Source of the DNA: Xanthobacteraceae bacterium
Lineage (GTDB): Bacteria; Pseudomonadota; Alphaproteobacteria; Rhizobiales; Xanthobacteraceae
Direction: 5' to 3'
Length of the DNA: 64,000 nucleotides
Assembly: GCA_049646625.1 (NCBI GenBank)
Contig: JBARWE010000219.1
Coordinates: forward strand, 4,361-68,360
Positions 5,824 through 23,086 of the stretch are shown here, one piece after another. Positions within the stretch are counted from its first letter, which is position 1; each line of letters starts with the position of its first letter. The notes beneath the pieces are model-generated. The model was not told the DNA's origin, did no database searches, and worked only from the letters and a program-made list of their open reading frames with translations. The translations under genes were made by a program, and so were the position numbers.

Positions 5824-6501
5824 TCAGCCCGCCGGCTTGCTCTTCGCGCTGCCGGCAGATGCCGAGCTTGCGGGGGCGGGGGTCATGCCGCTCAGCAGAA
5901 ACCTGCGGGCCGCCGCGACGTAGAGCGATCCGTCGAGTTCGTTCCGGCGGCGCGCCCATTCGAGCAGCATGCCATCGGACATCGCGACCAGCACGCTGGC
6001 CATTTCCCGCGTCGGCGCATGGTTGGCGAATGCGCCGATCGCCTTTCCGTCGTCGATCAGCTGCTCCATGGATTGCGCGAAGTCGTCGTACATCGCGCGC
6101 AGTTTTTTCTCCACCGGGCTGCGAGTCCCCCAGAATTCGGGGGCGATGATGATCGGCAGCAGCAGGGCGTTGCGCTGGGTTTGGCCCCATCGCGACAACT
6201 TGTGAACGAACTGAACCAGGCGTTCGCGTGGCGGAACGGAGCTGTCTTTCAGCGTCTCGAAGACCGGCTTGTAGATCAGCGTCTCGACCCGCTCGATCAG
6301 CTTGAGCAGAATGGTCGTCTTGTCGGAGAAATAGAAGTAGACGGCGCCCTTCGTCAGGTTCGCCCGCTCGGCGATCTGATCGATGGTCGTCGTATGGAAT
6401 CGTTGCGTTACGAACAGGTGCTCGGCGGCGCCCAGAATGGCGTTCAGGCTTATCGAGCGCCGCTCGACATTGGACACGCGCTTGTGCTTCTTTTTCTTCA
6501 T
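5824..6501 (-). CDS. TetR/AcrR family transcriptional regulator
   Basis: N-terminal HTH: LNAILGAAEHLFVTQRFHTTTIDQIAERANLTKGAVYFYFSDK. It is divergent from the acyl-CoA ligase gene. Confidence 0.92.
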   Translation of the reverse strand: MKKKKHKRVSNVERRSISLNAILGAAEHLFVTQRFHTTTIDQIAERANLTKGAVYFYFSDKTTILLKLIERVETLIYKPVFETLKDSSVPPRERLVQFVHKLSRWGQTQRNALLLPIIIAPEFWGTRSPVEKKLRAMYDDFAQSMEQLIDDGKAIGAFANHAPTREMASVLVAMSDGMLLEWARRRNELDGSLYVAAARRFLLSGMTPAPASSASAGSAKSKPAG

Positions 6502-6771
6502 GGGGAATAGCGAGCTTCAGGCGGGGTTGATAGGGTCGTTGGCAGGTGAAATCGCGCGGATATTAGTCCGCCCGCTCGAGGTCGAGCCAGTGTGCAATGC
6601 CGTGGCCATCCAAAGTACCCCCTGGTTCATTCGCTCTTGCGGCTTGCCGGCGTTCTGCGAGCCGTGCCGGTTTCGGTCGATACCGGCCCCTGCCGTGGGG
6701 TGCTTGATAGCTGGCAGAACCCCTTGCGGCTACCCTATCCTCCGAAATAGCCGAGTGAAAGCTGGAGACGC

Positions 6772-6784
6772 TTGATCTTATCAA
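6772..6784. promoter_or_regulatory. Inverted repeat TTGAT-CTT-ATCAA, candidate TetR operator
   Basis: Seen in the TetR/ligase intergenic region, 44 nt upstream of the ligase GTG. It is short, so the significance is modest. Confidence 0.3.
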
Positions 6785-6827
6785 AAACCGGCTGTACAGT
6801 TTGTGAATAACGGGAGGACGAGGGAGC

Positions 6828-8489
6828 GTGGCCACGGTGACCGAAGCGGAGTTGAGAACCGAGCGCCGGCTCGGTGGCTTTGATTTCATTCTTGCCAGAG
6901 GTGCCGAGACGCACCCCGATCTGATTGCCATCGACGACCGCCTCAACGGAAGGCTTCTGACCTATCAGGAGCTTCGCTCCCGATCGATTAAAATGGCCCG
7001 GGCCTTGCAGCGGCTCGGCGTGGTGAAAGGCGACAGGGTCGCTTACGTCTTTTTCAACGAGCACCCCTCGATCGAGGTGCTGTTCGCCTGCGTCATGCTG
7101 GGCGCGATCGCCGTCCCGCTGAATACCCGCCTGCTCGCCGACGAGGCGTGTCAGTATGTCGACAAGCAGGAATGCAGGGTGTTTATCGCGCGCAGCGAGC
7201 TGAGCCGCCTGGCCGAAAACAGCGCCGTCAAACACTTCATCGTCCGCGGGGACAGCGCCTCGTCGCGCGCTGCGCTCGACTACGAGGCGTTGCTGGCGGC
7301 AGAAACGGACGTGCCGCTGCCGCCTCAGGCGGCGTGGGAAGACCGCTACATGCTGGCGATGACCGGCGGCACCACCGGCGGCTCCAAGGCCGTCTCGTGG
7401 ACGCATGGCGGCGCCATGTTTGATGTCCTGTCGGTGATCGCGCTGCTTGGTGTGAAGCGGGGTTATGGCACGATCTGTGTCGCGCCGACCTACCATGCGG
7501 CCGGCCTCGGATGGGGATTCCTGCCGTCGTTCTGGCAGGGCGGGCGGGTGATTTTCTCGCCGAGCACATCGTTCTCGCCGGCCTTCCTGCACAAGACGTT
7601 CGCGGAGCAACCGGTGCCGTTTCTATTCCTCGTGCCGGCGATGATCGATCCGCTGCACCGGGCCTGGAACGGCAAGCCGGTTTCGTGCGTGAAGTCGGTT
7701 TGCGTGGCTTCGGCGCCGACGCCGGAGCCGCTGCGCCGGAAGCTCGTCGAGATGTTTCCCGAGGCGGAGGTGATCGCCGCCTATGGAATGACCGAATCGT
7801 TCTCGGTGTGCGTGCAGCGGCCCGACGAGTTTCTGGCCTTCCCCGGCGGGGTCGGTGCGCCGGCGCTGGATTCGCGCGTGCGGATTGTCGATGACAGCGG
7901 TGCGGTCGTGCCGCGCGGCACTGTCGGCAATATCGTCACGAGAACGCTGGCCATGGGCGTCGGCTATAACGGCGATCCGGCAAGCACGGCCGTTACCTTC
8001 AGGAAATGCGGTGACGATCCCGAAGGTCTCGATTGGATTTTTACCGGCGATATCGGTTCGATGGACGAGAGCGGCCGGCTGACCATCGTCGATCGCTCGA
8101 AGGACGTCATCATCACCGGCGGGGAAAACGTCCATTCCGTCGAGATCGAAACGATTTTGGCATCGCATCCCGGTGTGCGCGAGTGCGCCGTGGTCGGCTT
8201 GCCGGATACGCAGTGGGGCGAACTGGTCACGGCGATCGTCGTGAAGAACGGCGCTGTCGCAACCGACGGCGATCTCGCCTCGGAGCTTCACAGTTTATGC
8301 CGCGCGCGCCTGAGCGGCTACAAGGTTCCGAAGCGGTTCTGCTTCATGGATGAATTGCCGCGCAGCTCGTTTGGAAAGGTCCTCAAGCGCGACTTGAGGG
8401 GCATGACTTACGATCGCGCGATCGACAGCCGGACGCTTGGAGCCGGTGCGACCCGTCCGGTATTTCGGATTGAGAAGGCTTCTGCTTGA
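6828..8489 (+). CDS. AMP-dependent acyl-CoA synthetase/ligase
   Basis: 553 aa. Motifs MTGGTTGGSK, YGMTE and TGDIGSMDESGRLTIVDRSKD, with a C-terminal SSFGKVLKR. The GTG start is preceded by GGGAGGA. Confidence 0.9.
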   Translation: MATVTEAELRTERRLGGFDFILARGAETHPDLIAIDDRLNGRLLTYQELRSRSIKMARALQRLGVVKGDRVAYVFFNEHPSIEVLFACVMLGAIAVPLNTRLLADEACQYVDKQECRVFIARSELSRLAENSAVKHFIVRGDSASSRAALDYEALLAAETDVPLPPQAAWEDRYMLAMTGGTTGGSKAVSWTHGGAMFDVLSVIALLGVKRGYGTICVAPTYHAAGLGWGFLPSFWQGGRVIFSPSTSFSPAFLHKTFAEQPVPFLFLVPAMIDPLHRAWNGKPVSCVKSVCVASAPTPEPLRRKLVEMFPEAEVIAAYGMTESFSVCVQRPDEFLAFPGGVGAPALDSRVRIVDDSGAVVPRGTVGNIVTRTLAMGVGYNGDPASTAVTFRKCGDDPEGLDWIFTGDIGSMDESGRLTIVDRSKDVIITGGENVHSVEIETILASHPGVRECAVVGLPDTQWGELVTAIVVKNGAVATDGDLASELHSLCRARLSGYKVPKRFCFMDELPRSSFGKVLKRDLRGMTYDRAIDSRTLGAGATRPVFRIEKASA

Positions 8490-8514
8490 AGCCGTGGCGT
8501 TAGGGGGAGGGACT

Positions 8515-9720
8515 ATGAGGATTGTTAACTGGCTGACCGTTGCAAAAGGAACGGCGGCCGTGTGCGCGCTGTTCGGCGCGATGCATTCGTTTACGGCATC
8601 GGCGGCCGAGCCTATCAAGATCGGGCTGCTTTTGCCGTATACGGGCGTCTTCGCTTCGATCTCGGAGGATATGACCCGCGGCTTCATGCTTGCCGTCGAT
8701 GAACTGGGCGGGCAGGTCGCTGGTCGTCCGATCGCGGTCATCAAGGGCGATACCGAACTCAAGCCCAACGTCGCGTTGCAACAGCTTGACAAGATATTGG
8801 GTTCGGACAAGGTCGATATCGTTGTCGGCGGAGCAAGCTCCAGCGAGGCGTTCGCGTTGCGCGATGCGCTTGTCAAGCGCAAGAAGCCGCTGGTCAACAT
8901 CCTGGCGGCCAGCGACAGTTTGACGCGCGAGCTTTGCAATCCCTATCTCGTGCGCACCTCCTTTAGCGCGACCGCGTTTGAATCGGCGATGGGACGGTGG
9001 CTCGCCAGTCAGGGCGTCAAGAAGGCGTTCACGATGGCCCCGGACTATTCGGCGGGGCACGAGGTCATCGGCAGCTTCCAGAAAGGATTTGAGGAAGGCG
9101 GAGGAAAGATTGTCGGACAGGCATGGCCTGCGTTCCGCACCACGAAAGACTACGCGCCGTTCTTTGCCAAGGCCAAGGAAAGCGGGGCCGATTTCATCTA
9201 TGCCTTCTTCGGCGGCGCCGAGGCGATTCAGGTTGTGAAGCAGCACGCCGATTTCGGTCTCAAAAAGACGATGCCGCTCTACGGATCGAGCTGGGTCTAC
9301 GATGTCCCGCTGCTGCCTGCGCAGGGTGATGCCGCCCTCGGTGCGAAATTCCTGACGCTTTATCTGCCCGACCTGCCGGGCAAGGTGAACGAGGAGTTCG
9401 TGAAACGCTACACCGCCAAATACGGCGCGCGGCCTTCGACTCCGGCGGTATTCGGTTACGATGCGGCGAAGTCAACCATGCTGGGCCTGCAGAAGCTCAA
9501 AGGCGACGTCTCGAAGCCCGAGAAGGTCGCGCCAGCCATCGCCTCCGCCAGCTATGAAAGCCCGCGCGGGCTGTTCAAGATCGATCCCAAAACGCAGAAC
9601 GTCATCAACGAGCGTCTGTATGTCGCGGAGGTCTCGCGCAACGGCAATGCCCTCGAGCACAAGCTGGTCGAGGCCGTGAAGGGGTTCCCGGATTCCGGTG
9701 AAGGCTGCAAGATGAACTAG
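8515..9720 (+). CDS. Branched-chain-amino-acid-type (LivK/Peripla_BP_6) ABC substrate-binding protein
   Basis: ATG at 8515 follows GGGGGAGG. Signal peptide ...CALFGAMHSFTASAAEP, then the typical IKIGLLLPYTGVFA start of the mature protein. Confidence 0.88.
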   Translation: MRIVNWLTVAKGTAAVCALFGAMHSFTASAAEPIKIGLLLPYTGVFASISEDMTRGFMLAVDELGGQVAGRPIAVIKGDTELKPNVALQQLDKILGSDKVDIVVGGASSSEAFALRDALVKRKKPLVNILAASDSLTRELCNPYLVRTSFSATAFESAMGRWLASQGVKKAFTMAPDYSAGHEVIGSFQKGFEEGGGKIVGQAWPAFRTTKDYAPFFAKAKESGADFIYAFFGGAEAIQVVKQHADFGLKKTMPLYGSSWVYDVPLLPAQGDAALGAKFLTLYLPDLPGKVNEEFVKRYTAKYGARPSTPAVFGYDAAKSTMLGLQKLKGDVSKPEKVAPAIASASYESPRGLFKIDPKTQNVINERLYVAEVSRNGNALEHKLVEAVKGFPDSGEGCKMN

Positions 9721-9752
9721 CGCACTACGTTGTGCTGTCCGCCCATCCGATC

Positions 9753-9786
9753 GAGGGGCGCCAATCTCTTGCGAGTGGCGCCCCTC
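9753..9786 (+). promoter_or_regulatory. GC-rich stem-loop (GAGGGGCGCCA-N12-TGGCGCCCCTC) after the SBP gene
   Basis: 11-bp perfect stem read from the sequence, lying between the SBP gene and the first permease gene. Confidence 0.55.
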
Positions 9787-9818
9787 AACGGTAAGCGTGA
9801 AGGAACGGAGCCTCTATC

Positions 9819-10685
9819 TTGCTGATCCAGATCCTGAATGCCGTGCAGCTCAGCATGCTGATTTTTCTGCTTGCGGTCGGACTGACGTTCATCTTCGGCA
9901 TCATGCGGGTGATCAACCTTGCCCATGGCGCTCTCTATTCGCTTGGCGCCTACCTCGGCGTGGTCGTTGTCGATGCGACGGGTTCGTTCCTCCTTGCGCT
10001 GATCGTGGCGCCGCTAATGGTGGCCGTCGTCGGCGGCTTGCTGCAGATCTTTGCGATCGGGCCGCTGACGGTGCGCGGGCGCAACGAGCTTGAAATAGCC
10101 CTGCTGACCTTCGGCTTGATGTATATATCGATCGGCGTGCTGGAGACGCTGTTCGGCAAGGACTATCTGAGCATCGCGCTGCCAAGCGCGCTGGCGGGAA
10201 GCGTCGATATCCTTGGCGTCTCTTATCCGCTCTATCGTCTGTTCATCATCGCGGTCGGGTTGCTGACGGCACTCTGCATTTCGCTGTTCATCGAGCGCAC
10301 GATCGTTGGCGCTGCGGTGCGGGCCTGCGTCGACAACAAGCCAATGTCGGAATCGCTCGGTATGAATACTGACTGGGTTCTCGCCGGTGTTTTTGCCGTC
10401 GGATCGGGCCTGGCCGCGCTCGGCGGGGTCATCATGGCGCCCGTGTTGAGCGTCTTTCCGCACATGGGCAGTTCTATTCTCATTCTCTCGCTGATTGTCG
10501 TGGTGATCGGTGGCATGGGAAGCCTGAAAGGCTCGTTCTACGGCAGCCTGATCGTCGGGCTGACCGATACCTTGACCCAGTCCTATCTGCCTCAACTCAC
10601 GATGTTCGCCGTCTACATCATTCTGGTTCTGGTGATGCTGACGCGGCCACACGGCCTGTTCGGCCGCCACGCCCATTCGTTGTGA
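9819..10685 (+). CDS. Branched-chain amino acid ABC permease (LivH-like)
   Basis: 288-aa polytopic protein with a LivH-family pattern (INLAHGALYSLGAY ... GGMGSLKGSFYG). TTG start. Confidence 0.88.
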   Translation: MLIQILNAVQLSMLIFLLAVGLTFIFGIMRVINLAHGALYSLGAYLGVVVVDATGSFLLALIVAPLMVAVVGGLLQIFAIGPLTVRGRNELEIALLTFGLMYISIGVLETLFGKDYLSIALPSALAGSVDILGVSYPLYRLFIIAVGLLTALCISLFIERTIVGAAVRACVDNKPMSESLGMNTDWVLAGVFAVGSGLAALGGVIMAPVLSVFPHMGSSILILSLIVVVIGGMGSLKGSFYGSLIVGLTDTLTQSYLPQLTMFAVYIILVLVMLTRPHGLFGRHAHSL

Positions 10686-10687
10686 TC

Positions 10688-11677
10688 ATGACAACAAAGT
10701 CTATTGCCGTGCCCTACCGAGCCAATGTGGCGAGCGATGTTCGCACCCTCAGTATCCTTGCAATCGCCGTAGCCGCCGCGGCACTTGCCTGTGCTCCGTT
10801 CGTGTTGAACGACTATCAGGTGAACCTTGTCATCGAGGCGATGGTGTTCGGCATCTTTGCGATCGGTCTGAATTTTCTCGTCGGCTATACGGGGCTGGTG
10901 TCTCTCGGCCACGCCATGTTCCTCGGGATCGGCGGCTACGGGTTCGGCATTTTCACGGTGCTGCTCGACTGGCCGTGGTGGGCGGCGATCCCGGCAACGA
11001 TTTTGTGTTCCGCGGTGCTGTCGTTCCTGATAGGCATCGTCTGCATCCGTTCGTCGGGCGTTGGATTCTTCATCATGACGCTTGCGTTCTCGGAGCTGAT
11101 GTACGGGCTGGCCTTCAAGACCAAACTCGTCGGCGGCGACGACGGCATGAGCGGCATCTCCCGGCCCGACATCGGCTTTCTGGGGCTTGACATCTATAAT
11201 CCGGCCACCCTTTACGGGTTCATGTTGGTTGCCTTTGCGATTGTGCTGTTCGTCTCGTGGCGGATCATCCGCTCGCCGTTCGGCATGGTTCTGGTCGGCA
11301 TTCGCGAGAACGAAAGCCGGATGCGCGCGCTCGGCTACAGAACGCAATGGTACAAGATGGCCGTCTTTACCCTGTCCGGCATGATCTCGAGCTTCGGAGG
11401 GGTGATGCTCGTCATCAAGACAGGGTTTATGTCGCCCGAAACGCTGTCCTGGATGATGAGCGGCGAGGGACTGCTGATGGTGATCGTCGGGGGGGCCGGA
11501 ACATTTCTCGGTCCGGTTCTTGGTGCGGCAGCCTATGTTCTTCTTCGTGCCGGTCTGACGGGAATAACGGATCATTGGATTCTGTTTCTCGGCTCGTTCT
11601 TTGTGCTTACCGTCGTCTTCTTTCGAGGTGGCCTTATCGGGCTTATATCCGGCGCAATGGCATGGGTGCGGAGATGA
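10688..11677 (+). CDS. Branched-chain amino acid ABC permease (LivM-like)
   Basis: Contains GYTGLVSLGHAMFLGIGGY and GGAGTFLGPVLGA. The start could be GTG 10682 (overlapping the upstream stop) or ATG 10688. Confidence 0.86.
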   Translation: MTTKSIAVPYRANVASDVRTLSILAIAVAAAALACAPFVLNDYQVNLVIEAMVFGIFAIGLNFLVGYTGLVSLGHAMFLGIGGYGFGIFTVLLDWPWWAAIPATILCSAVLSFLIGIVCIRSSGVGFFIMTLAFSELMYGLAFKTKLVGGDDGMSGISRPDIGFLGLDIYNPATLYGFMLVAFAIVLFVSWRIIRSPFGMVLVGIRENESRMRALGYRTQWYKMAVFTLSGMISSFGGVMLVIKTGFMSPETLSWMMSGEGLLMVIVGGAGTFLGPVLGAAAYVLLRAGLTGITDHWILFLGSFFVLTVVFFRGGLIGLISGAMAWVRR

Positions 11678-12420
11678 TGGCCCTGAAGGTCGAATCGCTT
11701 TCCAAGCGATTTGGGGGGCTTCACGTTCTCGAGGACGTGGCCTTTTCCATTCCGGCTGGCGCACGGCATGCGTTGCTTGGGCCGAATGGTGCTGGCAAAA
11801 CAACATTGATCAATGTCGTGTCCGGTTGGTTGCGGCCGGATTCGGGGAAAATCGAGATCTATGGGGAGGATACGACCGGCCTTCCAGTGGAAAAACTGGT
11901 GAGGCGTGGGCTTGCTCGTTCGTTTCAGCGCAACAGCGCAATCGGCGATCTCTCGGTGCTCGAAAACCTCTGCCTTGCCTCTCACGCGATTATGCCTGGG
12001 CATGCAAACCTCTGGAGAGATCGGACGAGCTATGCCCAACCAATCGATCGGGCAACGGAAACTGCCGCGTGGATGGGTCTCGATAAGGTGCTGCATAGGT
12101 CCGCACGAGAGCTTTCGTACGGCGAAAAGCGTCAGCTCGAAGTCGCCCTCGCAATGTGCTCGAAACCAAGACTTCTGCTGCTGGACGAGCCGGCGGCCGG
12201 CACGTCGCCCGGAGAGCGTGGACGTCTCCGCGATCTGATCAAGTCGCTGCCGCCCGATATCAGCCTGGTGATGATCGAGCATGACATCGACCTGGTGTTC
12301 GACGTCTGCGATTCCGCAACGATCCTGAGCTACGGGCAAGTCATCGCCCAAGGCAGCAGAGAGGAAATCCGCAAAAGCACCGCGGTCCAGAATGCGTATC
12401 TCGGGGCTGCTCATGCTTAA
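11674..12420 (+). CDS. ABC ATP-binding protein (LivG-like)
   Basis: ATGA overlap with the livM-like stop. Walker A GPNGAGKTT, signature LSYGEKRQLE, Walker B LLLDEPAAG. Confidence 0.9.
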   Translation: MMALKVESLSKRFGGLHVLEDVAFSIPAGARHALLGPNGAGKTTLINVVSGWLRPDSGKIEIYGEDTTGLPVEKLVRRGLARSFQRNSAIGDLSVLENLCLASHAIMPGHANLWRDRTSYAQPIDRATETAAWMGLDKVLHRSARELSYGEKRQLEVALAMCSKPRLLLLDEPAAGTSPGERGRLRDLIKSLPPDISLVMIEHDIDLVFDVCDSATILSYGQVIAQGSREEIRKSTAVQNAYLGAAHA

Positions 12421-13114
12421 GGTCAGGGACATCCGCACATATTACGGCGAAAGCTGTATTCTTCAGGGCGTAACCCTTGATGTGAAAGAGGGAACGTGCG
12501 TCGCTCTGGTCGGCCGCAACGGCGCCGGGAAGACGACGACGCTTCGCAGCATCCTCGGCATGGTGCCGCCGCGGCAAGGCAGCATTCAGTACAAAGGCAA
12601 AGACATCACCCGTATGCGGACATGGCGCATCGCGCGCATGGGAATCGTGAATGTCCCGGAAGATCGCGGTATTTTTCCATCTCTGACCATCGAGGAGCAG
12701 CTGCGTCTCACGAAAGCGCTGGCGCGGAATCGTCCCAACTCGCGCTCAATCGATGAGGTCTATGCGATTTTTCCGCGCCTCGCCGAGCGACGCAAGCATC
12801 TGGGGACGCATCTTTCGGGCGGCGAGCAGCAGATGCTCGCGATCGGACGCGCGACAATCCTTGGGCCGGACCTTCTGGTCCTCGATGAGCCGAGTGAGGG
12901 GCTTGCGCCGCTCATCGTCGAACATGTCTTTATGGCACTCGACCGGATCCGCCGGGAGGGGACGACGATCCTGCTGGTCGAGCAGAACTATCATTGGGCC
13001 ATCCAGCTGGCCGATTTCGTTTATGTGCTGAGCCAGGGCGAGGTGAAATTTGAGGGCAGTCCCGCGCTGCTCGAATCCCACCCGGCCGTCAAGCAAGAGT
13101 TTTTGGGCATCTGA
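12413..13114 (+). CDS. ABC ATP-binding protein (LivF-like)
   Basis: Walker A GRNGAGKTT, signature LSGGEQQML, Walker B LVLDEPSEGL. The start overlaps the upstream gene by 8 nt. Confidence 0.9.
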   Translation: MLKVRDIRTYYGESCILQGVTLDVKEGTCVALVGRNGAGKTTTLRSILGMVPPRQGSIQYKGKDITRMRTWRIARMGIVNVPEDRGIFPSLTIEEQLRLTKALARNRPNSRSIDEVYAIFPRLAERRKHLGTHLSGGEQQMLAIGRATILGPDLLVLDEPSEGLAPLIVEHVFMALDRIRREGTTILLVEQNYHWAIQLADFVYVLSQGEVKFEGSPALLESHPAVKQEFLGI

Positions 13115-13984: not shown

Positions 13985-13999
13985 TGCGTAGGAAAGCAT

Positions 14000-15568: not shown

Positions 15569-15996
15569 CGTCGGATGGCGACCTTTCGCAGACGCTCGGC
15601 CAGTTCAGCGCTGATCGGTGCCGGGCGGCGCGCTGCCTTCGAGAAGTGCACCAGAACCGTTTCGGCGACGGCGGCGCACTCGCTCTGGCTGAAAAGACCT
15701 TGTGCTATCGTAAAGGAACTTGTGCCGGTGTGTAGGATGCCCGTGCCTATCCTGACTTGTCCCGGCGCGAACAGCTCCCTGAGCAAATTGACCGTTGTGC
15801 GCGCGACGACGGCCGCGGTGGTCAGCTTCTCGCCGATAATCCCAAGCTCGATGCACAATGTCAGCCGCGCCGTGTCGCAATAGGTCACATATGAGGCGGT
15901 GTTGATGTGTCCGAGCAGATCGGTATCGCCGAATCTCAACGTATCGTCGGTCCAGTGCGGATACGCATCGGGATGCTTCAGTCGTTCGTCGATCAT
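15565..15996 (-). CDS. Acyl-CoA thioesterase, 4HBT/YbgC-like hotdog fold
   Basis: 143 aa. The N-terminus (...LRFGDTDLLGHINTASYVTYCDTAR) matches the 4HBT pattern (D.D..GHV.N..Y). Confidence 0.78.
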   Translation of the reverse strand: MIDERLKHPDAYPHWTDDTLRFGDTDLLGHINTASYVTYCDTARLTLCIELGIIGEKLTTAAVVARTTVNLLRELFAPGQVRIGTGILHTGTSSFTIAQGLFSQSECAAVAETVLVHFSKAARRPAPISAELAERLRKVAIRR

Positions 15997-16110: not shown

Positions 16111-16497
16111 ATGGCGCTTCAGGTCGGAGCAACGAGCAGCGAGAGCTTTGCCGTGGGGCAGGAGCATACGGCGCTGGCCATGGGCAACGAGGGGGTTTCC
16201 GTTCTCGGCACGCCGGCATTGATCCTGTTCGCGGAGACGGTCTGTCATCGGATGCTTGTGCCGCATCTGGCGGACGGAGACGCATCTGTCGGAATAGCTG
16301 TCAACATTCGTCATCTCAAGGCGACCCCGGTCGGCATGCGGGTGCAGGTCAGCGCCACCCTGCGGGAGATCGCTGGCAGGCGTCATCTGTTCGAGGTGTC
16401 CGGGCAGGACGAGGAAGGCGCGATCCTTGCCGGCACTCATGAACGGGCCATTGTCGATCTGGCGCCGTTTCTGGCCAAGATCGAGGTGGCCAGGTAG
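16111..16497 (+). CDS. Hotdog-fold thioesterase (fluoroacetyl-CoA-thioesterase-like family)
   Basis: ATG 16111 lies 7 nt after GGAGGA. Pattern: GVSVLGTPALILFAETVCHRML ... SVGIAVNIRHLKATPVGMRV ... GRRHLFEV. Confidence 0.72.
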   Translation: MALQVGATSSESFAVGQEHTALAMGNEGVSVLGTPALILFAETVCHRMLVPHLADGDASVGIAVNIRHLKATPVGMRVQVSATLREIAGRRHLFEVSGQDEEGAILAGTHERAIVDLAPFLAKIEVAR

Positions 16498-16587: not shown

Positions 16588-17412
16588 CTACATGTAACGA
16601 ACGACGAAGGTGGCGACGCCGATGGGCTTGTCGCTGCCGACCGTATTCCAGGTGACGTCGTATGAGACGGACAGGCCGCGCTCGCGCGGCTCGACCCGCC
16701 CGACCTTGACCGTTTGCGTCAGCCTCGCTCCCTGCACGAGCGGGGCGAGCAGGCGGATGCGGTCGCTGCCCTGAAACAGCATGGTGTCGACGTTACGTAT
16801 CTCGACCAGATCGAAGAACAGTTTTGGAAACAGCGCCGCCGCCATCATGCCCGGCGCAATCGTCGTGCCGAAGGGCGAGGCCTTGCAGCGCTCCTCGTCC
16901 CAATGGATCCATTCGGTGTTCTCGGTCGAGCGGCAGAACTGGTCGATCCGGTCCTGGGTGATTTCGATCGGCCCGGCCGTGCCAAGCGTCGTTCCCTCAA
17001 GCGGGGCGAATCCGGACAGGCCGTCGATGACGATGCTTGCGGTCATGGTCTTGCGTTCCTTTGAAAGTTGCCCGCCGGAGCCGGAGGCTGTGAACTGGTC
17101 CGCTATCGGTGCCAAGCCGTTCTGCGAGTTTTGGGCGACATTGCACCTGCCGCGACCGCAAAGACGGTCAAGGGACGTATCGTCGTCGGTGTCTGAGGTT
17201 CTGGCTCTTTCGGCCACGGTCAACCGCTGGAAGTAATCCATTGCGGTTGGCGGCAGCTTGCCGGACCACTTCACCCAGTTGAAGATGGTCCGGCACGTCC
17301 TGCACTCGAACATCACTTCCGAGATGCTGCTTCCGAATAGTGACAGAAGCTCCACGTTGCCGCCGTGACATTCGGGGCAGCGGACATCCTTGAAGTCGTC
17401 GTCGCGCATCAA
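16588..17412 (-). CDS. Fusion ORF: PaaD-type C-terminal zinc ribbon, a linker of about 70 aa, and a MaoC-like (R)-hydratase domain
   Basis: Residues 10-48 read VRCPECHGGNVELLSLFGSSISEVMFECRTCRTIFNWVKW. This matches the E. coli PaaD C-terminus as I recall it (VRCPRC...LISEFGSTACKALYRCDSCREPFDYFK). Residues 123-274 are a MaoC hotdog domain. No stop codon separates the two parts. An internal ATG at 17046 with AAGGAA upstream could also start a stand-alone MaoC protein. Confidence 0.7.
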   Translation of the reverse strand: MMRDDDFKDVRCPECHGGNVELLSLFGSSISEVMFECRTCRTIFNWVKWSGKLPPTAMDYFQRLTVAERARTSDTDDDTSLDRLCGRGRCNVAQNSQNGLAPIADQFTASGSGGQLSKERKTMTASIVIDGLSGFAPLEGTTLGTAGPIEITQDRIDQFCRSTENTEWIHWDEERCKASPFGTTIAPGMMAAALFPKLFFDLVEIRNVDTMLFQGSDRIRLLAPLVQGARLTQTVKVGRVEPRERGLSVSYDVTWNTVGSDKPIGVATFVVRYM

Positions 17413-18188
17413 TTGTAGGCCGCGGCCGGGTCTTTCAGTTGAACGATGCCGAACAGACGGTCCGGGATATTGCCGGCGCGGCGCCGTTCGATCGTCCAGT
17501 CGGCTGCCGGCGGGACCGGATCGGGCAGCTTTGCGTCGATTTGCGACGCCTGAAGCGCGGCCGAAACCTCATTGAGGAATGCCTCCCGCAGCTTCGTGGC
17601 CGGCAGCGCGCGCAGCCCCGCATCGTACAGGACGTCGTTCTGGCTGCTGTCGCCGAACCACGCCGCCGCCTGCGGCAGCCGCTGCGCCACCGCCTGGCCG
17701 AACTCCACATTCTCAGTGCCGGCGAAAATGCCGCGCCAGCCTTCGCAATACTTCAGGTGGAAGTAGGATTCCTGGCCGATTTTATGGACCAGACCGGACA
17801 ATGCGCGATCCGGATGCGACAGGAAGCCGGAGGCGAAAGTCCACATCGCCTGCTCGGCGAGATAGACCGATGCAACAAAGTCCTCCCAGGACTCCGGCGG
17901 GCTGTCGAGAAGGTTCATCGAGTTGATGCCGGTCGCATCGCGACGCCGCTCCAGATCGGTGTACGGGATGCCGAAATTGACCAGATACAGATACAGCCCG
18001 CGCGTATGGCCGAACGTTGCAGTCGCCATGCCGAGGATGGCGGCGAAGTCGGGCAGGGATCGGCCGTTGTGCACGCACATCGTATACCAGTTGGCCAGCA
18101 CAAGCTTGCTGTCGGCCAGCGCCAGCACGTCGGACTTGAGGCGATCGCGAGCCTCGGGGGCGAGCGTTGCCAGATCGAAACGGTTCAT
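17409..18188 (-). CDS. paaC: PaaC-like (PaaI) structural subunit of a phenylacetyl-CoA-epoxidase-type oxygenase
   Basis: 259 aa from ATG 18188. Ferritin-like helical protein (LADSKLVLANWYTMCV ... GHTRGLYLYL). It sits directly after paaB. Confidence 0.75.
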   Translation of the reverse strand: MNRFDLATLAPEARDRLKSDVLALADSKLVLANWYTMCVHNGRSLPDFAAILGMATATFGHTRGLYLYLVNFGIPYTDLERRRDATGINSMNLLDSPPESWEDFVASVYLAEQAMWTFASGFLSHPDRALSGLVHKIGQESYFHLKYCEGWRGIFAGTENVEFGQAVAQRLPQAAAWFGDSSQNDVLYDAGLRALPATKLREAFLNEVSAALQASQIDAKLPDPVPPAADWTIERRRAGNIPDRLFGIVQLKDPAAAYN

Positions 18189-18192
18189 GATC

Positions 18193-18450
18193 CTAAGCCT
18201 CTTTGATTTTGCCGCGGGCACCTTTGTCGGTCACCGAGATGACCGCATCGGTAGGAACCACGCACATTTCGCGCCAACGCTGCTGGTCGTAGACGTACCA
18301 GGCGCGAACCTGAGCCAACTCGTCGTTGGGCGCCTCGATACTGCCGACGTGAGCCAGTACGTCGTTTGAGTCGATTCGCGCGAACACTTCGTAGAACTTG
18401 GTGCTGTTGCCGCCGAGTTCCGCGCGATTGATCTTCTTCGGCTTGATCAT
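18193..18450 (-). CDS. paaB: PaaB-like small subunit
   Basis: 85 aa. FYEVFARIDSNDVLAHVGSIEAPNDELA..A...Y follows the PaaB pattern (YEVF.R......H.GS..A). ATGA overlap with the upstream gene. Confidence 0.78.
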   Translation of the reverse strand: MIKPKKINRAELGGNSTKFYEVFARIDSNDVLAHVGSIEAPNDELAQVRAWYVYDQQRWREMCVVPTDAVISVTDKGARGKIKEA

Positions 18451-18758
18451 ATCTGGATTCCGTTTGTTCGCATCAACGTCTTGGTCTCGTCGTCCAGCAG
18501 GTCGCGCGACCACGGCAGGAAAAAGCCGTTTTCGATAACGACGCTGCGAACGCCGGGAAGATCGAGCAACGCGCGTTCGATATCGCCGTGGAGCATACTG
18601 ACGCCGGGACAGCCGAGGCAGGGAATGCACAGTTGCACATGCACCACGCCATCCTCGATGGAGATGTCCCGGAGCATGCCCATGCGCCGGATGCTGACCG
18701 GAACATGGGGATCGTTGACCTTCTCCAGGGCCTCGCGGATATCGTCGACGGTTACCAC
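18447..18758 (-). CDS. DUF59/MIP18-family protein, equivalent to the N-terminal domain of PaaD
   Basis: 103 aa from a GTG that overlaps the paaA stop (GTGGTAA). Sequence: VTVDDIREALEKVNDPHVPVSIRRMGMLRDISIEDGVVHVQLCIPCLGCPG. Confidence 0.72.
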   Translation of the reverse strand: MVTVDDIREALEKVNDPHVPVSIRRMGMLRDISIEDGVVHVQLCIPCLGCPGVSMLHGDIERALLDLPGVRSVVIENGFFLPWSRDLLDDETKTLMRTNGIQI

Positions 18759-19735
18759 AGAGCGCTGCCCCAGTGCTCTTCCTGAAGCCGCTTGAACCCC
18801 GAAACCTTTGTGGGACCGCCCTTGCGCCACTGCTCGAACTGCTCTTCCCAGGTCGTGGTCTTGTAGTCCCACTTGCCGGTTTCCTCGTTGAGAAGGATCG
18901 GCATTTCGTAGTCCAGGACGTAGCAGCCCTTGTCCGCATCGAAGTGCGCCGGAACACGAATGCCGATCGACTCGCAGAACGGCACAACCTCGTTGAGCCA
19001 GCGCTGCCGCAGCTCGTCGTTGCTCTGGCCGCGGATCTTATAGGACAGCTGGTCGACCCGCTTCTTCATGGTGTCGGGAGTACCGAACCACATCACGGCG
19101 TTCGGAAATACGAAGTCGATCGCCTCCTGCACGCGCTTGCGCGTTTCCGGCGACAGGTTCCAGTAGAACTTGGTCCACTTCTCGCCGTGAGCGACGTGAA
19201 ACTGCTCCTCGAAATTGACCTTGCGGAGTGAGCGCGCGTAGGGGCCGTAGGAACACGATTCCTCGAGGTCGCGGGTGGTGGTGTAGCCGGCGCGATCGCC
19301 CAGCAGCATGTACACCACGCACTGGATGTAATCGGGAATATCGTGCTGCGTGAGGTAGAACGTCTTGAACTCGGTCGGATCGCGCTCGAAGATCAGCTCG
19401 TGGGTGTTGTAGCCGAAATCCTCGAGCATCCGATACATCACCTGAGCGTGGCCTAGCTCGTCCTGCATGGCAGATGCGACCGCCATTTTTGCTTCCAGCG
19501 TCGGCGCCTTCACAAGTGGCGTGTAGTACATGGTGATGGTCGAGACCTCGAGGTCCGCGGCGATCAACATGGTCTGCACCAGCACGTTGCGATAGCGCGG
19601 CGTCATCTCGCGGTCGTCTTCGAGCTTGCGGCCGCTTTTGACCCATATCTGGAGCGCTGTCTCGCGATCCTCGTCTTTCAACCCGGATACCGGAGGCATC
19701 CTGTTTTCGTGGTTGGCGACGGCTGCATCAGGCAT
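18752..19735 (-). CDS. paaA: PaaA-like catalytic diiron subunit (1,2-phenylacetyl-CoA epoxidase subunit A family)
   Basis: 327 aa. Carboxylate/His ligand motifs QDELGH and FEEQFH, plus the PaaA-typical SYGPYARS and NDELRQR. Confidence 0.85.
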   Translation of the reverse strand: MPDAAVANHENRMPPVSGLKDEDRETALQIWVKSGRKLEDDREMTPRYRNVLVQTMLIAADLEVSTITMYYTPLVKAPTLEAKMAVASAMQDELGHAQVMYRMLEDFGYNTHELIFERDPTEFKTFYLTQHDIPDYIQCVVYMLLGDRAGYTTTRDLEESCSYGPYARSLRKVNFEEQFHVAHGEKWTKFYWNLSPETRKRVQEAIDFVFPNAVMWFGTPDTMKKRVDQLSYKIRGQSNDELRQRWLNEVVPFCESIGIRVPAHFDADKGCYVLDYEMPILLNEETGKWDYKTTTWEEQFEQWRKGGPTKVSGFKRLQEEHWGSALW

Positions 19736-19902
19736 TCTTTTTCTCCATGGGTGCTACCAAAATCGTGGCCCCGTCCCTCTGAACGGTCCTGATGTCAGGC
19801 CCTCGGAAAGGGGCGGGGCGTCTCCTGCACCGCTTGCAAACATACCGACTACTTAGTAATGTTATCAGACGGAGATTTTGTCAAGTTTGGATGTTCACAG
19901 GG

Positions 19903-21405
19903 ATGCGCAAGCTTCAGCTTTTCATTGGTGGTGAGTTCGTCGAGGCGGAAAACGGCGAGACTTATTTTTCGATAAATCCGGCCAACGGCGAGGCGATCGC
20001 CGAATGCGCCTGGGCGGGCGCGGGCGACGCGGAGCGGGCGATTGCCGCCGCCCGGACGGCGTTCGACAGGGGGCCGTGGCGCGACTTTTCGGCCTCGGAC
20101 CGCAAGAGCGTGCTGCTGAAGCTCGCCGCCCTGTTGAAGGACCGCCAGAACGACGTCGCGCTGATGGAGGTGCAGGACGCCGGCGCGCTGATCGGCAAGG
20201 CGACGACCGATGTCGCGCTTTGCGTCAAGCAGCTTCGCTATTTTGCCGAGATGGCGGACAAGTTCACCGGCGAGCCGGTGCCGATCGAGGGCCTGTCCCG
20301 GCCGGGACGCTCGCACTACTATACGGTGAGGGAGCCGTTCGGCGTTTGCGGCGCCATCATCCCCTGGAATTTTCCATTGACGATGGCGGTGTGGAAGATC
20401 GCCTCCGCGCTGGCGACGGGCAATGCGATCGTTCTCAAATGTGCGGCGGAAACGCCTTTAAGCGCCATGGAGCTGGCGCGATTGTGCAACGAGGCGGGCG
20501 TGCCGCCGGGCGTGGTCAATGTGATCACCGGTGAGGTGGAGGCCGGGCAGGCGCTGGTCAAAAGCTCCTCTGTCGACAAAATCTCCTTTACCGGCTCGAC
20601 CGAAGTCGGCCGCGAGATCATGCGCGAGGCGGCCGCGACGTTGAAGAACGTGACGCTCGAATGCGGAGGAAAATCGGCCAACATCGTCATGGACGACGCC
20701 GACCTTGAGACCGCCGTGGATGGCTCGCTGTATGCGACCTTCTTCCATAGCGGGCAGGTCTGCGAGTCGGGCACCCGTCTTCTGTTGAGCAAGAAGCTTC
20801 ATGATTCGTTCGTCGAGCGAATGATTGCGCGTGTCGAAGCCATGCGGATCGGAGACCCCATGGATCCGGAGACGACGGTGGGTCCGGTCGTCTCCGAACG
20901 GCAGATGGATCGCGTCCTCGACTATATCGAAGTTGGCAAGCGCGAGGGCGCCAGGCTGAGCGTCGGCGGTTCGCGTGCGACCGAGGGGCCTCTTGCCAGG
21001 GGGTTTTTCGTCAAGCCGACGATCTTTACCGACGTCAGCAACGACATGCGGATTGCCCGTGAGGAAATTTTTGGCCCGGTTCTATGCGTTCTTCGCTATG
21101 GCGACGTTGATGAGGCGGTCGGGATCGCGAACGATAGCATTTTTGGCCTCGCCGCCGGTGTCTGGAGCAAAGATATCCCGCGGGCGACGGACGTTGCGCG
21201 AAAACTCCAGGCGGGCTGGGTCTGGCTCAATGAATGGCATGTGCTATCGGAGCGCGCTCCGTTCGGCGGCTACAAGCAGTCCGGGATCGGCCGCGAACTG
21301 GGTGAAGAAGGCTTGAATGCGTATACACAGCTCAAGACGCTCTATCGGGACGACTCGACGGGCCGTCAGGCGAAGCCGTGGTACGACATTCTCGTTCGTC
21401 AGTAG
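19903..21405 (+). CDS. NAD(P)-dependent aldehyde dehydrogenase
   Basis: Catalytic region LECGGKSANIV and FHSGQVCESGTR. ATG 19903 is chosen because it begins the typical LFIGGEFV N-terminus. An alternative ATG is at 19891. Confidence 0.9.
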   Translation: MRKLQLFIGGEFVEAENGETYFSINPANGEAIAECAWAGAGDAERAIAAARTAFDRGPWRDFSASDRKSVLLKLAALLKDRQNDVALMEVQDAGALIGKATTDVALCVKQLRYFAEMADKFTGEPVPIEGLSRPGRSHYYTVREPFGVCGAIIPWNFPLTMAVWKIASALATGNAIVLKCAAETPLSAMELARLCNEAGVPPGVVNVITGEVEAGQALVKSSSVDKISFTGSTEVGREIMREAAATLKNVTLECGGKSANIVMDDADLETAVDGSLYATFFHSGQVCESGTRLLLSKKLHDSFVERMIARVEAMRIGDPMDPETTVGPVVSERQMDRVLDYIEVGKREGARLSVGGSRATEGPLARGFFVKPTIFTDVSNDMRIAREEIFGPVLCVLRYGDVDEAVGIANDSIFGLAAGVWSKDIPRATDVARKLQAGWVWLNEWHVLSERAPFGGYKQSGIGRELGEEGLNAYTQLKTLYRDDSTGRQAKPWYDILVRQ

Positions 21406-21447
21406 CCCCCGGCTGAAACTCCACATCCGCAAATCGAGGACGACGGC

Positions 21448-22260
21448 ATGAAGGACGGCGAACGCGCGCCTGTTGTATTTCAGGTGCAGGACGGGGTCGC
21501 AACGTTGACGCTTAACGACCCGGACAACCGCAATCCGATTTCGGCGCCGGACATGGTTGACGCCATTATTTCCGCGATCGAGAGCGTCAATGTCCGCGAC
21601 GACATTTCGGTGCTGGTGCTAACCGGCAACGGCTCGGCTTTCTCGGCGGGTGGCGACATCAAGGCAATGCGGGAGCGCACCGGCATTTCCGGCGGCTCGC
21701 CGATGGAGGTCGACCGCAACTATCGCCGGACAATCCAGCGCATCCCCCTGTGTCTTTACAATGTTGAGGTTCCGACCGTCGCCGCGGTTAATGGCCCCGC
21801 CATCGGGGCGGGCTGTGACCTGGCGTTGATGTGCGACATCCGGATCGCGTCGACGACGGCGCGCTTCGGCGAAACGTTCGTCAATCTCGGTATCATTCCC
21901 GGCGACGGCGGCGCGTGGTTTTTGCCCCGGCGGATCGGATACGAGCGCGCGGCGGAGATGATCTTCACCGGGCGTATTGTCGACGCGCAGGAAGCGCACG
22001 AGATCGGCATGGTGCTTAAGGTGGTTGATCCCGCCAGCCTGATGCAGGAGAGCTACGAACTGGCGCGGAAAATTGCCGCCAAGCCGCCGGCCGCCATTCG
22101 CATGGCCAAGCGGCTCCTGCGCCAGAGCGCCTCGGCGCAGTTGCGCGATTTTCTCGACACCTGTGCCGCCTATCAGGCGCTGGCGCATCATATGGACGAC
22201 CACATGGAAGCGATCGAGGCGTTCTTCGAGAAGCGGCCCGCAACGTTCCGGGGAGCCTAG
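21448..22260 (+). CDS. Enoyl-CoA hydratase/isomerase family protein
   Basis: 270 aa. GNGSAFSAGGD, and a C-terminal MEAIEAFFEKRPATF. Confidence 0.9.
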   Translation: MKDGERAPVVFQVQDGVATLTLNDPDNRNPISAPDMVDAIISAIESVNVRDDISVLVLTGNGSAFSAGGDIKAMRERTGISGGSPMEVDRNYRRTIQRIPLCLYNVEVPTVAAVNGPAIGAGCDLALMCDIRIASTTARFGETFVNLGIIPGDGGAWFLPRRIGYERAAEMIFTGRIVDAQEAHEIGMVLKVVDPASLMQESYELARKIAAKPPAAIRMAKRLLRQSASAQLRDFLDTCAAYQALAHHMDDHMEAIEAFFEKRPATFRGA

Positions 22261-22327
22261 TCGGCGAAGCTCGATGACGAGTCCCGGGCACGCGGCGCGA
22301 CCGGGCACGGATCAAGGAAGGAACGCG

Positions 22328-23086
22328 ATGGCGCTGATCGAGGAAAGATCGCAAGACGTTGTTGTTTTGACGATCGACCAGCCGGAGCGGCGCAACGCGC
22401 TGTCCTCTGCCGTCAAGCAGCGCCTTGCCGAGGTGATGGATCGTCTGGAGACCGACACCACGGTGCGCGCGATTGTCATCACGGGGACCGGCGGAAATTT
22501 CAGTTCCGGCGGCGATCTGGCCGAGATGGGCACGCCGACACTGGCCGAGGCGCGCGACCGGTTCATCGAGTCGCACCGGCTCGTGCGCGCCATCGTGCGC
22601 TCCAGCAAGGTTGTCATTGCCGCGGTCGAAGGCTGGGCGGTCGGCGCGGGCATGTCGCTGGCGCTCGTTTGCGATTCCGTGGTCGCCGCTGAGGATGCGA
22701 GGTTTTCCGCCGGCTTCGGCAAGGTCGGTCTGATCGGCGACCTCGGCATTGTCTATTCGCTTGCGCGGCGGGTAGGGGAGGCGCGGGCAAAGCAGATCTT
22801 GCTCTATGCGCAGACGATCGGGGTTGAGGAAGCGAAGCGGATCGGGCTGATCGATGACGTCGCCGGCAAGGGGAATGCGCTTGCCGGGGCCATGGAGATG
22901 GCGCACCGGGTGAGGTCGGTGGCGCCGCTCTCGATCAGCGCGACCAAGGCCATGCTGGTCGGACAACTGGATATCTTTCTGGACCGGGAACGGGAGATAC
23001 AAGCCTCGCTTCTGACCTCTCAGGATTTTCTTGAGGGAAAACTGGCTTTCCGGGAAAAGCGTGCGCCGAACTTCCGCAATCAGTAG
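22328..23086 (+). CDS. Enoyl-CoA hydratase/isomerase family protein
   Basis: ATG 22328 follows AAGGAAGGA. GTGGNFSSGGD, and a C-terminal FLEGKLAFREKRAPNF. Confidence 0.88.
   Translation: MALIEERSQDVVVLTIDQPERRNALSSAVKQRLAEVMDRLETDTTVRAIVITGTGGNFSSGGDLAEMGTPTLAEARDRFIESHRLVRAIVRSSKVVIAAVEGWAVGAGMSLALVCDSVVAAEDARFSAGFGKVGLIGDLGIVYSLARRVGEARAKQILLYAQTIGVEEAKRIGLIDDVAGKGNALAGAMEMAHRVRSVAPLSISATKAMLVGQLDIFLDREREIQASLLTSQDFLEGKLAFREKRAPNFRNQ

Follow-up and report, generated by a model that had tools for sequence, protein, structure and literature searches.

An 18-kb island around a PaaA-like diiron oxygenase in a Xanthobacteraceae genome, probably for the degradation of an aromatic acid as a CoA thioester

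The subject of this study is a stretch of 64,000 nucleotides (hereafter the window) from contig JBARWE010000219.1 (C219; positions 4,361 to 68,360 of the forward strand) of a metagenome-assembled genome (MAG) of a Xanthobacteraceae bacterium (GCA_049646625.1; 3.3 Mb, 88% complete), and in particular a group of genes around an operon for a PaaABC-like diiron oxygenase. The genes between positions 5031 and 23086 (about 18 kb) probably form a single catabolic island. The reading that we favor, and to which we would give about two chances in three, is that this one island serves the aerobic degradation, as a coenzyme A (CoA) thioester, of an organic acid that is most likely aromatic and similar to benzoate. 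The oxygenase belongs to a clade outside canonical PaaA, and a set of uptake, activation and downstream genes recurs beside it in other bacteria. A 98%-identical copy of the island is present in another Xanthobacteraceae MAG (hereafter the sister MAG).

Results

The oxygenase core

Gene families were assigned with Pfam, and equivalog or subfamily status with the cut-offs of the NCBIfam models. The oxygenase operon is located on the minus strand. Its first gene (18752-19735) encodes the PaaA-like catalytic diiron subunit (Pfam PaaA_PaaC, E 9e-50). It is followed by a stand-alone DUF59/FeS_assembly_P protein of 103 residues (18447-18758), which equals the N-terminal half of PaaD, by a PaaB-like bridging subunit of 85 residues (18193-18450; weak Pfam PaaB match, E 4.5e-5), by a PaaC-like structural subunit (17409-18188; Pfam PaaA_PaaC), and by an open reading frame (ORF) in which a zinc ribbon is fused to a MaoC domain (16588-17412; Pfam Zn_ribbon_PaaD and MaoC_dehydratas). 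PaaD is split here, with DUF59 in a separate gene and the zinc ribbon at the head of another ORF.

No island protein attains the cut-off of a Paa equivalog model in NCBIfam. The PaaA-like protein scores 130 bits on TIGR02156 (cut-off 280), the PaaC-like protein 31 bits on TIGR02158 (cut-off 133), and the PaaB-like protein 21 bits (PaaB cut-off 85). The DUF59 protein scores 58 bits with the haloarchaeal PaaD model, 50 with PaaD and 52 with the SUF-associated model, all under the cut-off. The genome's own canonical genes are found on contig C89 (PaaA 558 bits, PaaE 458, PaaK 744), and its sole BoxB match (TIGR03225, 914 bits) on contig C179. Since canonical paaA, paaE and paaK and also boxB are encoded on these other contigs, the island is the third CoA-ester diiron system of this genome, beside paa and box.

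The PaaA-like protein and the canonical PaaA of the same genome share only 26-29% identity. All six diiron ligands (E, DExxH, D, EExxH) are nevertheless kept and align with those of E. coli PaaA and of the genome's own PaaA. In the PaaC-like protein the iron-ligand positions hold K, T and S in place of E, as in canonical PaaC. From this pattern of residues, the diiron site of the PaaA-like protein would appear to be genuine and catalytic.

When 1.84 billion cluster representatives were searched exhaustively, the PaaA-like family at 50% identity or more fell into one cluster, about 12 sister clusters stood at 35-42%, and canonical PaaA stood below 30%. On the PaaA model the family and its sister clusters score 65-130 bits, as against 227-385 bits for canonical and near-canonical proteins. 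A maximum-likelihood tree split the canonical PaaA clade from the PaaA-like clade with a support of 100/99. The PaaA-like core clade lies well outside canonical PaaA.

The core gene order (paaA-like, DUF59, paaB-like, paaC-like, small Cys4 ribbon) was found in the window and in about 46 loci of relatives (hereafter numbered with L); a few of these loci hold only the paaA-like, paaB-like and paaC-like genes. The position of the PaaB-like protein is conserved (47-82% identity), the DUF59 gene is kept between paaA-like and paaB-like, and a TetR gene usually accompanies the core. An invariant P-C-x-G-C-P-G motif (with Cys47 and Cys50 in the window protein) is common to the stand-alone DUF59 proteins of the clade and may be a metal- or cluster-handling site. 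Public records label the relatives PaaA, PaaC or PaaI. Full-text literature searches for PaaE-less or PaaA-like systems brought up only papers on canonical paa; in that literature the clade is uncharacterised.

Accessory genes that recur beside the core

The accessory genes of the island flank the core, with 45-80% identity, in at least seven independent loci (L004, L013, L014, L023/L025, L024, L030 and L049). In L013 (PaaA-like 75%), TetR, the core with its zinc ribbon, a first ligase (Lig1, 57%), a substrate-binding protein (SBP, 61%), the LivHMGF transporter genes (51-60%), the crotonase ECH1 (76%) and a second ligase (Lig2, 55%) are collinear on one strand. In L004 and L023/L025 (PaaA-like 80%), an aldehyde dehydrogenase (ALDH, 74%) or the crotonase ECH2 (64%) is followed by the core and zinc ribbon, in part MaoC (74%), the two thioesterases FlK (57-59%) and 4HBT (53-63%), ECH1 (79-80%) and a ligase (Lig1, 64-66%); the 4HBT and FlK orthologues hold the same position in L004 and in L023/L025. 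In Azospirillum sp. ST 5-10 (L014; PaaA-like 61%), the core and zinc ribbon are accompanied by Lig1 (55%), MaoC, TetR, ALDH (66%), MaoC (56%) and a crotonase. A search begun from MaoC instead of PaaA recovered L024, where a core of 44% identity is found with ALDH (66%), MaoC (52%), a Liv-type transport system, a ligase (46%) and TetR genes.

Gene by gene, the picture is as follows. TetR homologues (35-46%) stand at the head of the PaaA-like operon or next to it in L005, L010, L012, L013, L014, L016, L017 and L018, and in 17 of the 32 metagenome loci. The relatives keep both types of ligase as partners of the core, with Lig1 orthologues (51-66%) beside the core in L004, L013, L014, L023/L025, L030 and L049, and Lig2 orthologues (44-64%) in L004, L013, L030, L040, L076, L091, L092 and L096. 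ALDH orthologues (66-74%) adjoin cores in L014, L023/L025 and L024, MaoC orthologues (49-74%) in L014, L022, L023, L024 and L049, and ECH2 orthologues (46-64%) in L004, L049, L062 and L065. The conservation of ECH1 orthologues (59-80%) equals or exceeds that of the PaaA-like protein itself; in a marine clade the values are 59-61% for ECH1 and 58-59% for PaaA-like. Of the accessory genes, ECH1 thus tracks the oxygenase most tightly across the relatives, and it is the best candidate to handle the oxygenase product.

These genes recur beside the core despite shuffled order and strand, and the island therefore appears to be one functional unit; because the set is found in unrelated bacteria, it looks like a real pathway. 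The first-pass annotation had described a CoA-thioester island that parallels the phenylacetate pathway without matching it, and this description is borne out by the Paa scores below cut-off, the canonical paa genes on C89 and the recurring gene set of the island's own.

Absence of a dedicated reductase

PaaE and PaaK were both missing from the surroundings of the core. As tblastn queries, the two proteins of this genome had 0 hits in the 32 metagenome loci of at least 8 kb, and neither is annotated in the remaining loci (about 46 loci in all). In the genome itself, PaaE above the cut-off is found on C89 only. Four of the five other module-carrying genomes, including that of Imbroritus primus, are without canonical PaaA and PaaE. 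It follows that the module does not draw on the paa reductase. The canonical enzyme depends on PaaE for catalysis; PaaD is required in vivo and dispensable in vitro (PMC4498308).

In the marine clade, a gene for a nitroreductase-family flavoprotein stands directly after the zinc-ribbon gene in L016 (12628-13371), L052, L056, L060 and L064, and it has the same placement in L068, L070, L080 and L081 (65-72% identity among all these loci). This flavoprotein is a candidate stand-in for the missing reductase in the marine clade; the window has no such gene.

Transporter and substrate

A Liv-type ATP-binding cassette (ABC) importer is encoded on the plus strand by five genes. They specify the SBP (8515-9720; Pfam Peripla_BP_6, E 2.5e-75), two permeases (9819-10685 and 10682-11677; Pfam BPD_transp_2 twice) and two ATPases (11674-12420 and about 12413-13114; Pfam ABC_tran twice, with BCA_ABC_TP_C), which is the composition of a hydrophobic amino acid uptake transporter (HAAT) of the Liv type. 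The best solved relatives of the SBP are 4evq/4evr, 4ey3, 4evs and 4f06 (E 4e-53 to 2e-34), which we take to be the benzoate-derivative binders RPA0668, RPB_2270, RPA0985 and RPD_1586 of R. palustris. The closest of them align over the full length with 184 bits, and LivJ-type binders of branched-chain amino acids reach only about 1e-10. The SBP thus seems to lie nearer to benzoate-type binders than to LivJ. The first-pass annotation had named an ordinary branched-chain amino acid specificity as the finding that would count against its reading; the E-values point elsewhere. RPA0668 (HbaE) binds benzoate and 4-hydroxybenzoate (PMC3223731; PMC6079105). The closest paralogue of the SBP in the genome (33% identity) is encoded on the boxB contig.

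Genes for UbiD-family decarboxylases, which depend on prenylated flavin mononucleotide, were observed within 10 kb of the core in L014 (2277-5967, with UbiX), L011 (18513-20096), L049 and L065, and also in L005. The recurring UbiD neighbours hint at aromatic or unsaturated (di)carboxylate substrates. A CoA-ester substrate fits, because nearly all partners of the core are CoA-ester enzymes. We judge it about twice as likely that the acid is aromatic as that it is an alicyclic or branched aliphatic one. Since the architectures around the core are diverse, the substrate may differ between clades.

Enzymes of the island

The two ligases, Lig1 (6828-8489, plus strand, 553 residues; Pfam AMP-binding and AMP-binding_C) and Lig2 (14000-15568, plus strand, 522 residues; assigned with Pfam), are both AMP-forming acyl-CoA ligases. 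Lig1 stays under every NCBIfam cut-off, its nearest solved structures being the feruloyl-CoA synthetase 8wev and FadD5; Lig2 scores 449 bits on PRK06187 (cut-off 476). The families concerned are FadD-like (PRK06187, FadD3/FadD5/FadD13-like, CasG-like). The first-pass annotation was correct in calling the ligases long AMP-type enzymes and not PaaK, the real PaaK being the one on C89. It also took the presence of two ligases to mean two substrates or a dicarboxylate, and either might be the case. A pathway for hydroxycinnamates, composed of a ligase, a hydratase/lyase and a vanillin-type ALDH with Lig2 acting on the benzoate product, was considered and judged unlikely, as no crotonase had a hydratase/lyase model among its best 25.

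Three crotonases are encoded on the plus strand, ECH1 (13190-13984), ECH2 (21448-22260) and ECH3 (22328-23086; ribosome-binding site AAGGAAGG at the 22328 start), each with a Pfam ECH_1 match. On the PaaG model ECH1 scores 184 bits (cut-off 345), and the island crotonases together 153-192 bits; in the match list of ECH1, EchA15 and the C-C hydrolase 6-oxocamphor hydrolase score near PaaG. ECH2 passes only the generic subfamily model PRK09245 (375 vs 354 bits). The best NCBIfam model of ECH3 is an alternative-type oxepin-CoA hydrolase, with 183 bits against a cut-off of 300. BoxC is absent from the best 25 models of each crotonase.

Two hotdog thioesterases lie between Lig2 and the oxygenase operon: a YbgC-like 4HBT_2 protein (15565-15996, minus strand; Pfam E 6.5e-18) and a FlK-family protein (16111-16497, plus strand; Pfam FlK, E 1.3e-30), the gene of which has a GGAGG ribosome-binding site at its 16111 start.

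The first-pass annotation regarded the stand-alone ALDH and MaoC together as a split PaaZ. The ALDH (19903-21405, plus strand; Pfam Aldedh, E 5e-173), whose likely start is the ATG at 19903 and not 19792, is an NAD(P)-dependent enzyme of the ALDH1/2 / BADH type and not of the PaaZ type; its nearest models, all under their cut-offs, are BADH (564 vs 669 bits), StyD and HpaE. The MaoC subfamily conserves N-[TD]-E-W-[IT]-H-x-D. Hydratase-2 MaoC enzymes carry the catalytic motif [YF]-x(1,2)-[LVIG]-[STGC]-G-D-x-N-P-[LIV]-H, so that here the His is kept and an Asn stands at the Asp position. In L014 and L024 the ALDH and MaoC genes are adjacent in the domain order of PaaZ; in the window MaoC is fused to the zinc ribbon. 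The idea of a split PaaZ gains support, then, as to how the two proteins may work. It gains none as to membership of the PaaZ family, given an ALDH of the ALDH1/2 / BADH type and an altered hydratase motif in MaoC.

The fusion ORF consists of the Cys4 ribbon (about 17260-17412), a linker of about 70 residues and the MaoC part (16588-17046), which retains its own ATG and ribosome-binding site at 17046. This arrangement is limited to the lineage of the window: in a search of 5.8 billion proteins, all 28 of the other MaoC homologues were stand-alone proteins of about 153 residues. In L023 (4209-5000), the ribbon (73 residues) and MaoC (151 residues) are separate genes 114 nt apart. In the sister MAG (L003) the fused frame is intact, and the differences are concentrated in the fast-evolving linker. 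The fusion is an in-frame read-through of the ribbon into the downstream MaoC, the former intergenic spacer now being the linker.

Regulation

The tetR gene (5824-6501, minus strand; Pfam TetR_N, E 2.5e-12) is divergent from lig1. A 20-nt palindrome, CATACTnAC-N4-GTnAGTATG, is conserved upstream of operon-heading tetR genes in L005, L010, L012, L013, L016, L017 and L018, and a weight matrix was built from the eight palindromes at these seven loci (two sites in L010). The best match of this matrix in the 3.3-Mb genome is CATACCGACTACTTAGTAAT at 19841-19860 (15.9 bits; the next outside the contig, 13.7), in the 167-nt divergent intergenic region between the PaaA-like and ALDH genes. TetR would be expected to bind at this site, and the predicted operator connects the TetR of the island with the operons of the oxygenase and the ALDH.

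The co-regulation of the genes, on which the first-pass reading depended, is thus supported in part, by the operator-like site between PaaA-like and ALDH, which lacks a counterpart in the tetR-lig1 region. A k-mer and palindrome search of the tetR-lig1, PaaA-like/ALDH and 4HBT/FlK intergenic regions gave no convincing shared operator. The sequence TTGAT-CTT-ATCAA near lig1 was considered as an operator and rejected, as the relatives contain nothing like it and the operator matrix gives it only 6.9 bits.

In three sludge metatranscriptome runs, exact 151-nt pieces were found over most island genes at a depth of 2-4; these are not counted as evidence of expression or co-expression, as carry-over of DNA is possible and contigs give no ranking of the genes.

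Extent of the island

The first-pass annotation placed the left border at 5824, and its gene content (TetR, two ligases, the five-gene Liv system, three crotonases, two thioesterases, ALDH, MaoC and the oxygenase operon) was reproduced by Pfam at the positions given above. The border itself is probably 5031. Directly downstream of tetR, a gene on the minus strand (5031-5687) encodes a protein of 218 residues with a transglutaminase core (Pfam Transglut_core, E 1.4e-15), a candidate extra member that is single-copy in the genome. In Azospirillum (L014) a homologue of 46% identity lies 3.3 kb upstream of the PaaA-like gene, and in L030 one of 48% identity lies immediately after the Lig1 orthologue. 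Because the gene recurs with the core in these two loci, we moved the start of the island from 5824 to 5031 and regard the gene as a probable member.

A near-consensus sigma-70-like promoter sequence (TTGACA-16-TAGAAT, 5754-5727 on the minus strand, 11 of 12 matches) is aimed into this gene. It overlaps a perfect palindrome, ATACTG-TT-CAGTAT (5712-5725), the half-sites of which resemble the tetR operator consensus of the relatives with a shorter spacing. Judged from these motifs, the promoter and the palindrome may be functional. Apart from this strong promoter, a generic promoter and terminator scan of the island gave no excess over shuffled sequence. A protein-atlas search with the transglutaminase-like protein returned its own family only; Cys-His-Asp acyl-transfer or thioester chemistry is conceivable for it.

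At the right end, ECH3 is counted as a member by its operon position only, and no clear orthologue of it adjoins other cores. The 528-nt gap after ECH3 (23087-23614) contains no intact gene, and the frame translated there has stop codons; we take this gap as the right border. The island comprises at least six transcription units on both strands.

As the first-pass annotation had reported, thiolase and FadB-type 3-hydroxyacyl-CoA dehydrogenase genes are absent, none being detected by tblastn on the whole 71.9-kb contig. Its suggestion that the lower pathway is encoded elsewhere agrees with the FadB-like and thiolase genes that tblastn found on contigs C155, C157, C42, C187 and C264.

Distribution and other architectures

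Among the genomes searched, the PaaA-like family is rare and patchy: in a sample of 300 genomes from this class, 2 carried it. The members of six homologue clusters are almost all metagenome sequences. About eight metagenome studies of sludge, bioreactors and soil contained DNA nearly identical to the island.

Other architectures were also observed. In a highly conserved Burkholderiales type (L012, L018, L010, L039, L040, L042 and L044), the genes are TetR, a short-chain dehydrogenase/reductase (SDR), the core, the zinc ribbon, TctC, an ADP-forming acyl-CoA synthetase, a crotonase, FadB and thiolase; the two cultured species with this type are Allopusillimonas ginsengisoli and Imbroritus primus. 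A marine type consists of TetR, the core, the nitroreductase-family gene, ECH1 and a tripartite ATP-independent periplasmic (TRAP) transport system. The hosts of L006 and L005 (G304 and G305) hold three and four PaaA-like matches of 89-120 bits and no canonical PaaA. In L011, a second PaaA_PaaC-family ORF (9148-9906) lies just upstream of the core, beside genes for a zinc-dependent alcohol dehydrogenase and PrpF.

Discussion

The pathway that we propose was assembled from gene presence, family assignment and gene linkage, and every enzymatic step in it is inferred. The Liv-type system would import the acid, and Lig1, Lig2 or both would form its CoA ester. The diiron oxygenase composed of the PaaA-like, PaaB-like and PaaC-like proteins would then oxygenate this ester by epoxidation or hydroxylation of the ring, assisted by the two PaaD halves (DUF59 and zinc ribbon) and supplied with electrons by a reductase that is not encoded nearby. 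ECH1 might isomerise the product or open it hydrolytically, in a role like that of PaaG or BoxC. The MaoC hydratase and the ALDH could act as a split PaaZ, converting the ring or chain by hydrolysis to an aldehyde and the aldehyde to an acid, and ECH2 and ECH3 could carry out further hydrations. The two thioesterases would free CoA from dead-end intermediates in the manner of PaaI. TetR would repress at least the divergent oxygenase and ALDH operons, and the thiolytic steps would be supplied from elsewhere in the genome.

Several observations weigh against this proposal. No reductase is encoded that could supply the electrons. As far as their sequences tell, both ligases are closer to FadD- or feruloyl-type enzymes than to benzoate-CoA ligases. 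Because it is a general enzyme of the ALDH1/2 / BADH type, the ALDH might just as well oxidise a free aldehyde before the ligase acts. With N-x-E-W-x-H where D-x-N-P-x-H is expected, the catalytic competence of MaoC is uncertain. In the tetR-lig1 region there is no operator match comparable to the one at 19841-19860, so that control of the uptake and ligase operon by TetR is a conjecture. Elsewhere, L016 and L017 hold the core with TetR only and no CoA genes within 10 kb, and other loci pair the core with a beta-oxidation set or a nitroreductase. Since the neighbours differ or are missing among the clades, the core is a module that different pathways reuse.

The most serious alternative, which we consider unlikely but not negligibly so, is a non-aromatic substrate. 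An acyl-CoA that is alicyclic, branched or for another reason resistant to beta-oxidation would then be hydroxylated or desaturated by the diiron enzyme, and the crotonases, MaoC and ALDH would pass the product on to ordinary beta-oxidation. Such a route would suit the FadD-like families of the ligases, the nearness of EchA15 and 6-oxocamphor hydrolase to PaaG in the matches of ECH1, and the Burkholderiales variant with its SDR, ADP-forming acyl-CoA synthetase, crotonase, FadB and thiolase. It fits less well with an SBP whose closest relatives are solved benzoate-type binders and with the UbiD neighbours in several relatives. PaaA and BoxB, the two relatives in this class that have been characterised, epoxidise aromatic rings (PMC4498308), and the pairing of ALDH with MaoC suits a hydrolytic ring opening to an aldehyde.

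It is much less probable that the unit is confined to the five-gene oxygenase operon, perhaps together with ECH1 and TetR, and that the transporter, ligases, ALDH and thioesterases belong to an unrelated metabolism of fatty acids or amino acids and became neighbours by accident. The core does have quite different neighbours or none in other clades, the genes are divided among at least six transcription units on both strands, and the tetR-lig1 region lacks a shared operator. Against this stand the recurrence of nearly every island gene by the core in the seven loci named above (L004 to L049), the collinear genes of L013 on one strand, and the same gene set returned by the search that started from MaoC. 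It is hardly credible that the island merely duplicates the phenylacetate or the benzoate CoA pathway, as a redundant set of isozymes for the same substrates: the subunit types (PaaA/B/C/D pieces) and the public labels PaaA, PaaC and PaaI are the same, but all scores are far under the equivalog cut-offs, the clade is distinct in the tree, the island has no PaaK-, PaaE- or PaaZ-type genes, the module occurs in genomes without canonical paa genes, and this genome already holds intact-looking paa and box genes.

The degradation of a benzoate-like acid by one island is thus the reading that we prefer. It may be asked whether the clade represents something more, namely a third family of pathways built on oxygenation of the ring (or of a C-H bond) of a CoA ester, with its own ECH1, split PaaZ, TetR operator and a supply of electrons other than PaaE or BoxA. 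We put this forward only tentatively and would sooner doubt it than assert it. In such a family, for example, the Cys4 ribbon might carry electrons in the manner of a rubredoxin and receive them from housekeeping reductases or, in the marine clade, from the nitroreductase-family flavoprotein. If this view were true, it would give access to a class of aromatic acids for which degradation through CoA-ester epoxidation is not known.

To our knowledge, only two CoA-ester epoxidase pathways, Paa and Box, are established for the aerobic "hybrid" degradation of aromatic compounds. The present analysis describes a distinct PaaA-like clade that has its own recurring genes for uptake, activation, crotonases, a hydratase, an ALDH and thioesterases, that has no dedicated reductase, and that coexists with both classical pathways in one bacterium of sludge and soil. 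With defined proteins (the SBP, Lig1, Lig2, ECH1, and TetR with its putative operator) and the cultured carriers Azospirillum sp. ST 5-10, Allopusillimonas ginsengisoli KCTC 22046 and Imbroritus primus LMG 32992 at hand, the substrate and the PaaE-free reduction of the diiron center are now approachable. The results also warn against annotating genes of this clade as phenylacetate catabolism, as public records do.

Comparison with known pathways

The phenylacetate pathway of E. coli and Pseudomonas (PaaK, PaaABC(D)E, PaaG, PaaZ, PaaF/H/J, PaaI) resembles the proposed pathway in its sequence of steps, from the acid to the CoA ester, diiron oxygenation, a crotonase step, MaoC hydratase and ALDH, with a hotdog thioesterase as a safety valve (PMC4498308). 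The likeness extends to the PaaA, PaaB and PaaC subunit types, to both halves of PaaD, and to the diiron ligands, which are kept in the catalytic and lost in the structural subunit. The island differs in that PaaE, PaaH and PaaJ are missing, PaaD is split, FadD-like ligases take the place of PaaK, ALDH and MaoC are unfused to each other and the ALDH is of another subfamily. Its TetR is unrelated in score to the named paa regulator models, and it has a Liv-type ABC importer.

The Box pathway (BoxAB, BoxC, BoxD) of Azoarcus and Burkholderia likewise proceeds by diiron epoxidation of the ring of a CoA ester, ring opening by a crotonase-family enzyme and then an ALDH. It is associated with an ABC-type binding protein for aromatic acids, and a paralogue of the island SBP is encoded on the boxB contig. 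The island oxygenase is of the PaaA type, however, and not of the BoxB type, and no BoxA-like reductase accompanies it.

Similar in form are the split-PaaD, reductase-less PaaABC-like operons, which share the genes paaA-like, DUF59, paaB-like, paaC-like and zinc ribbon, frequently a TetR gene, and the absence of PaaE. In the island, by contrast, the core lies within a large recurring accessory set and the zinc ribbon is fused in frame to MaoC; for the tetR operator, moreover, a conserved motif was defined. On the side of uptake, the counterpart is HbaE (RPA0668) of R. palustris, also a Peripla_BP_6 SBP, with a five-component HAAT-type transporter beside CoA-ligase genes (PMC3223731). The relationship between the SBPs is moderate, and the island pathway would be aerobic and based on an oxygenase, in contrast to the anaerobic bad/hba pathway.

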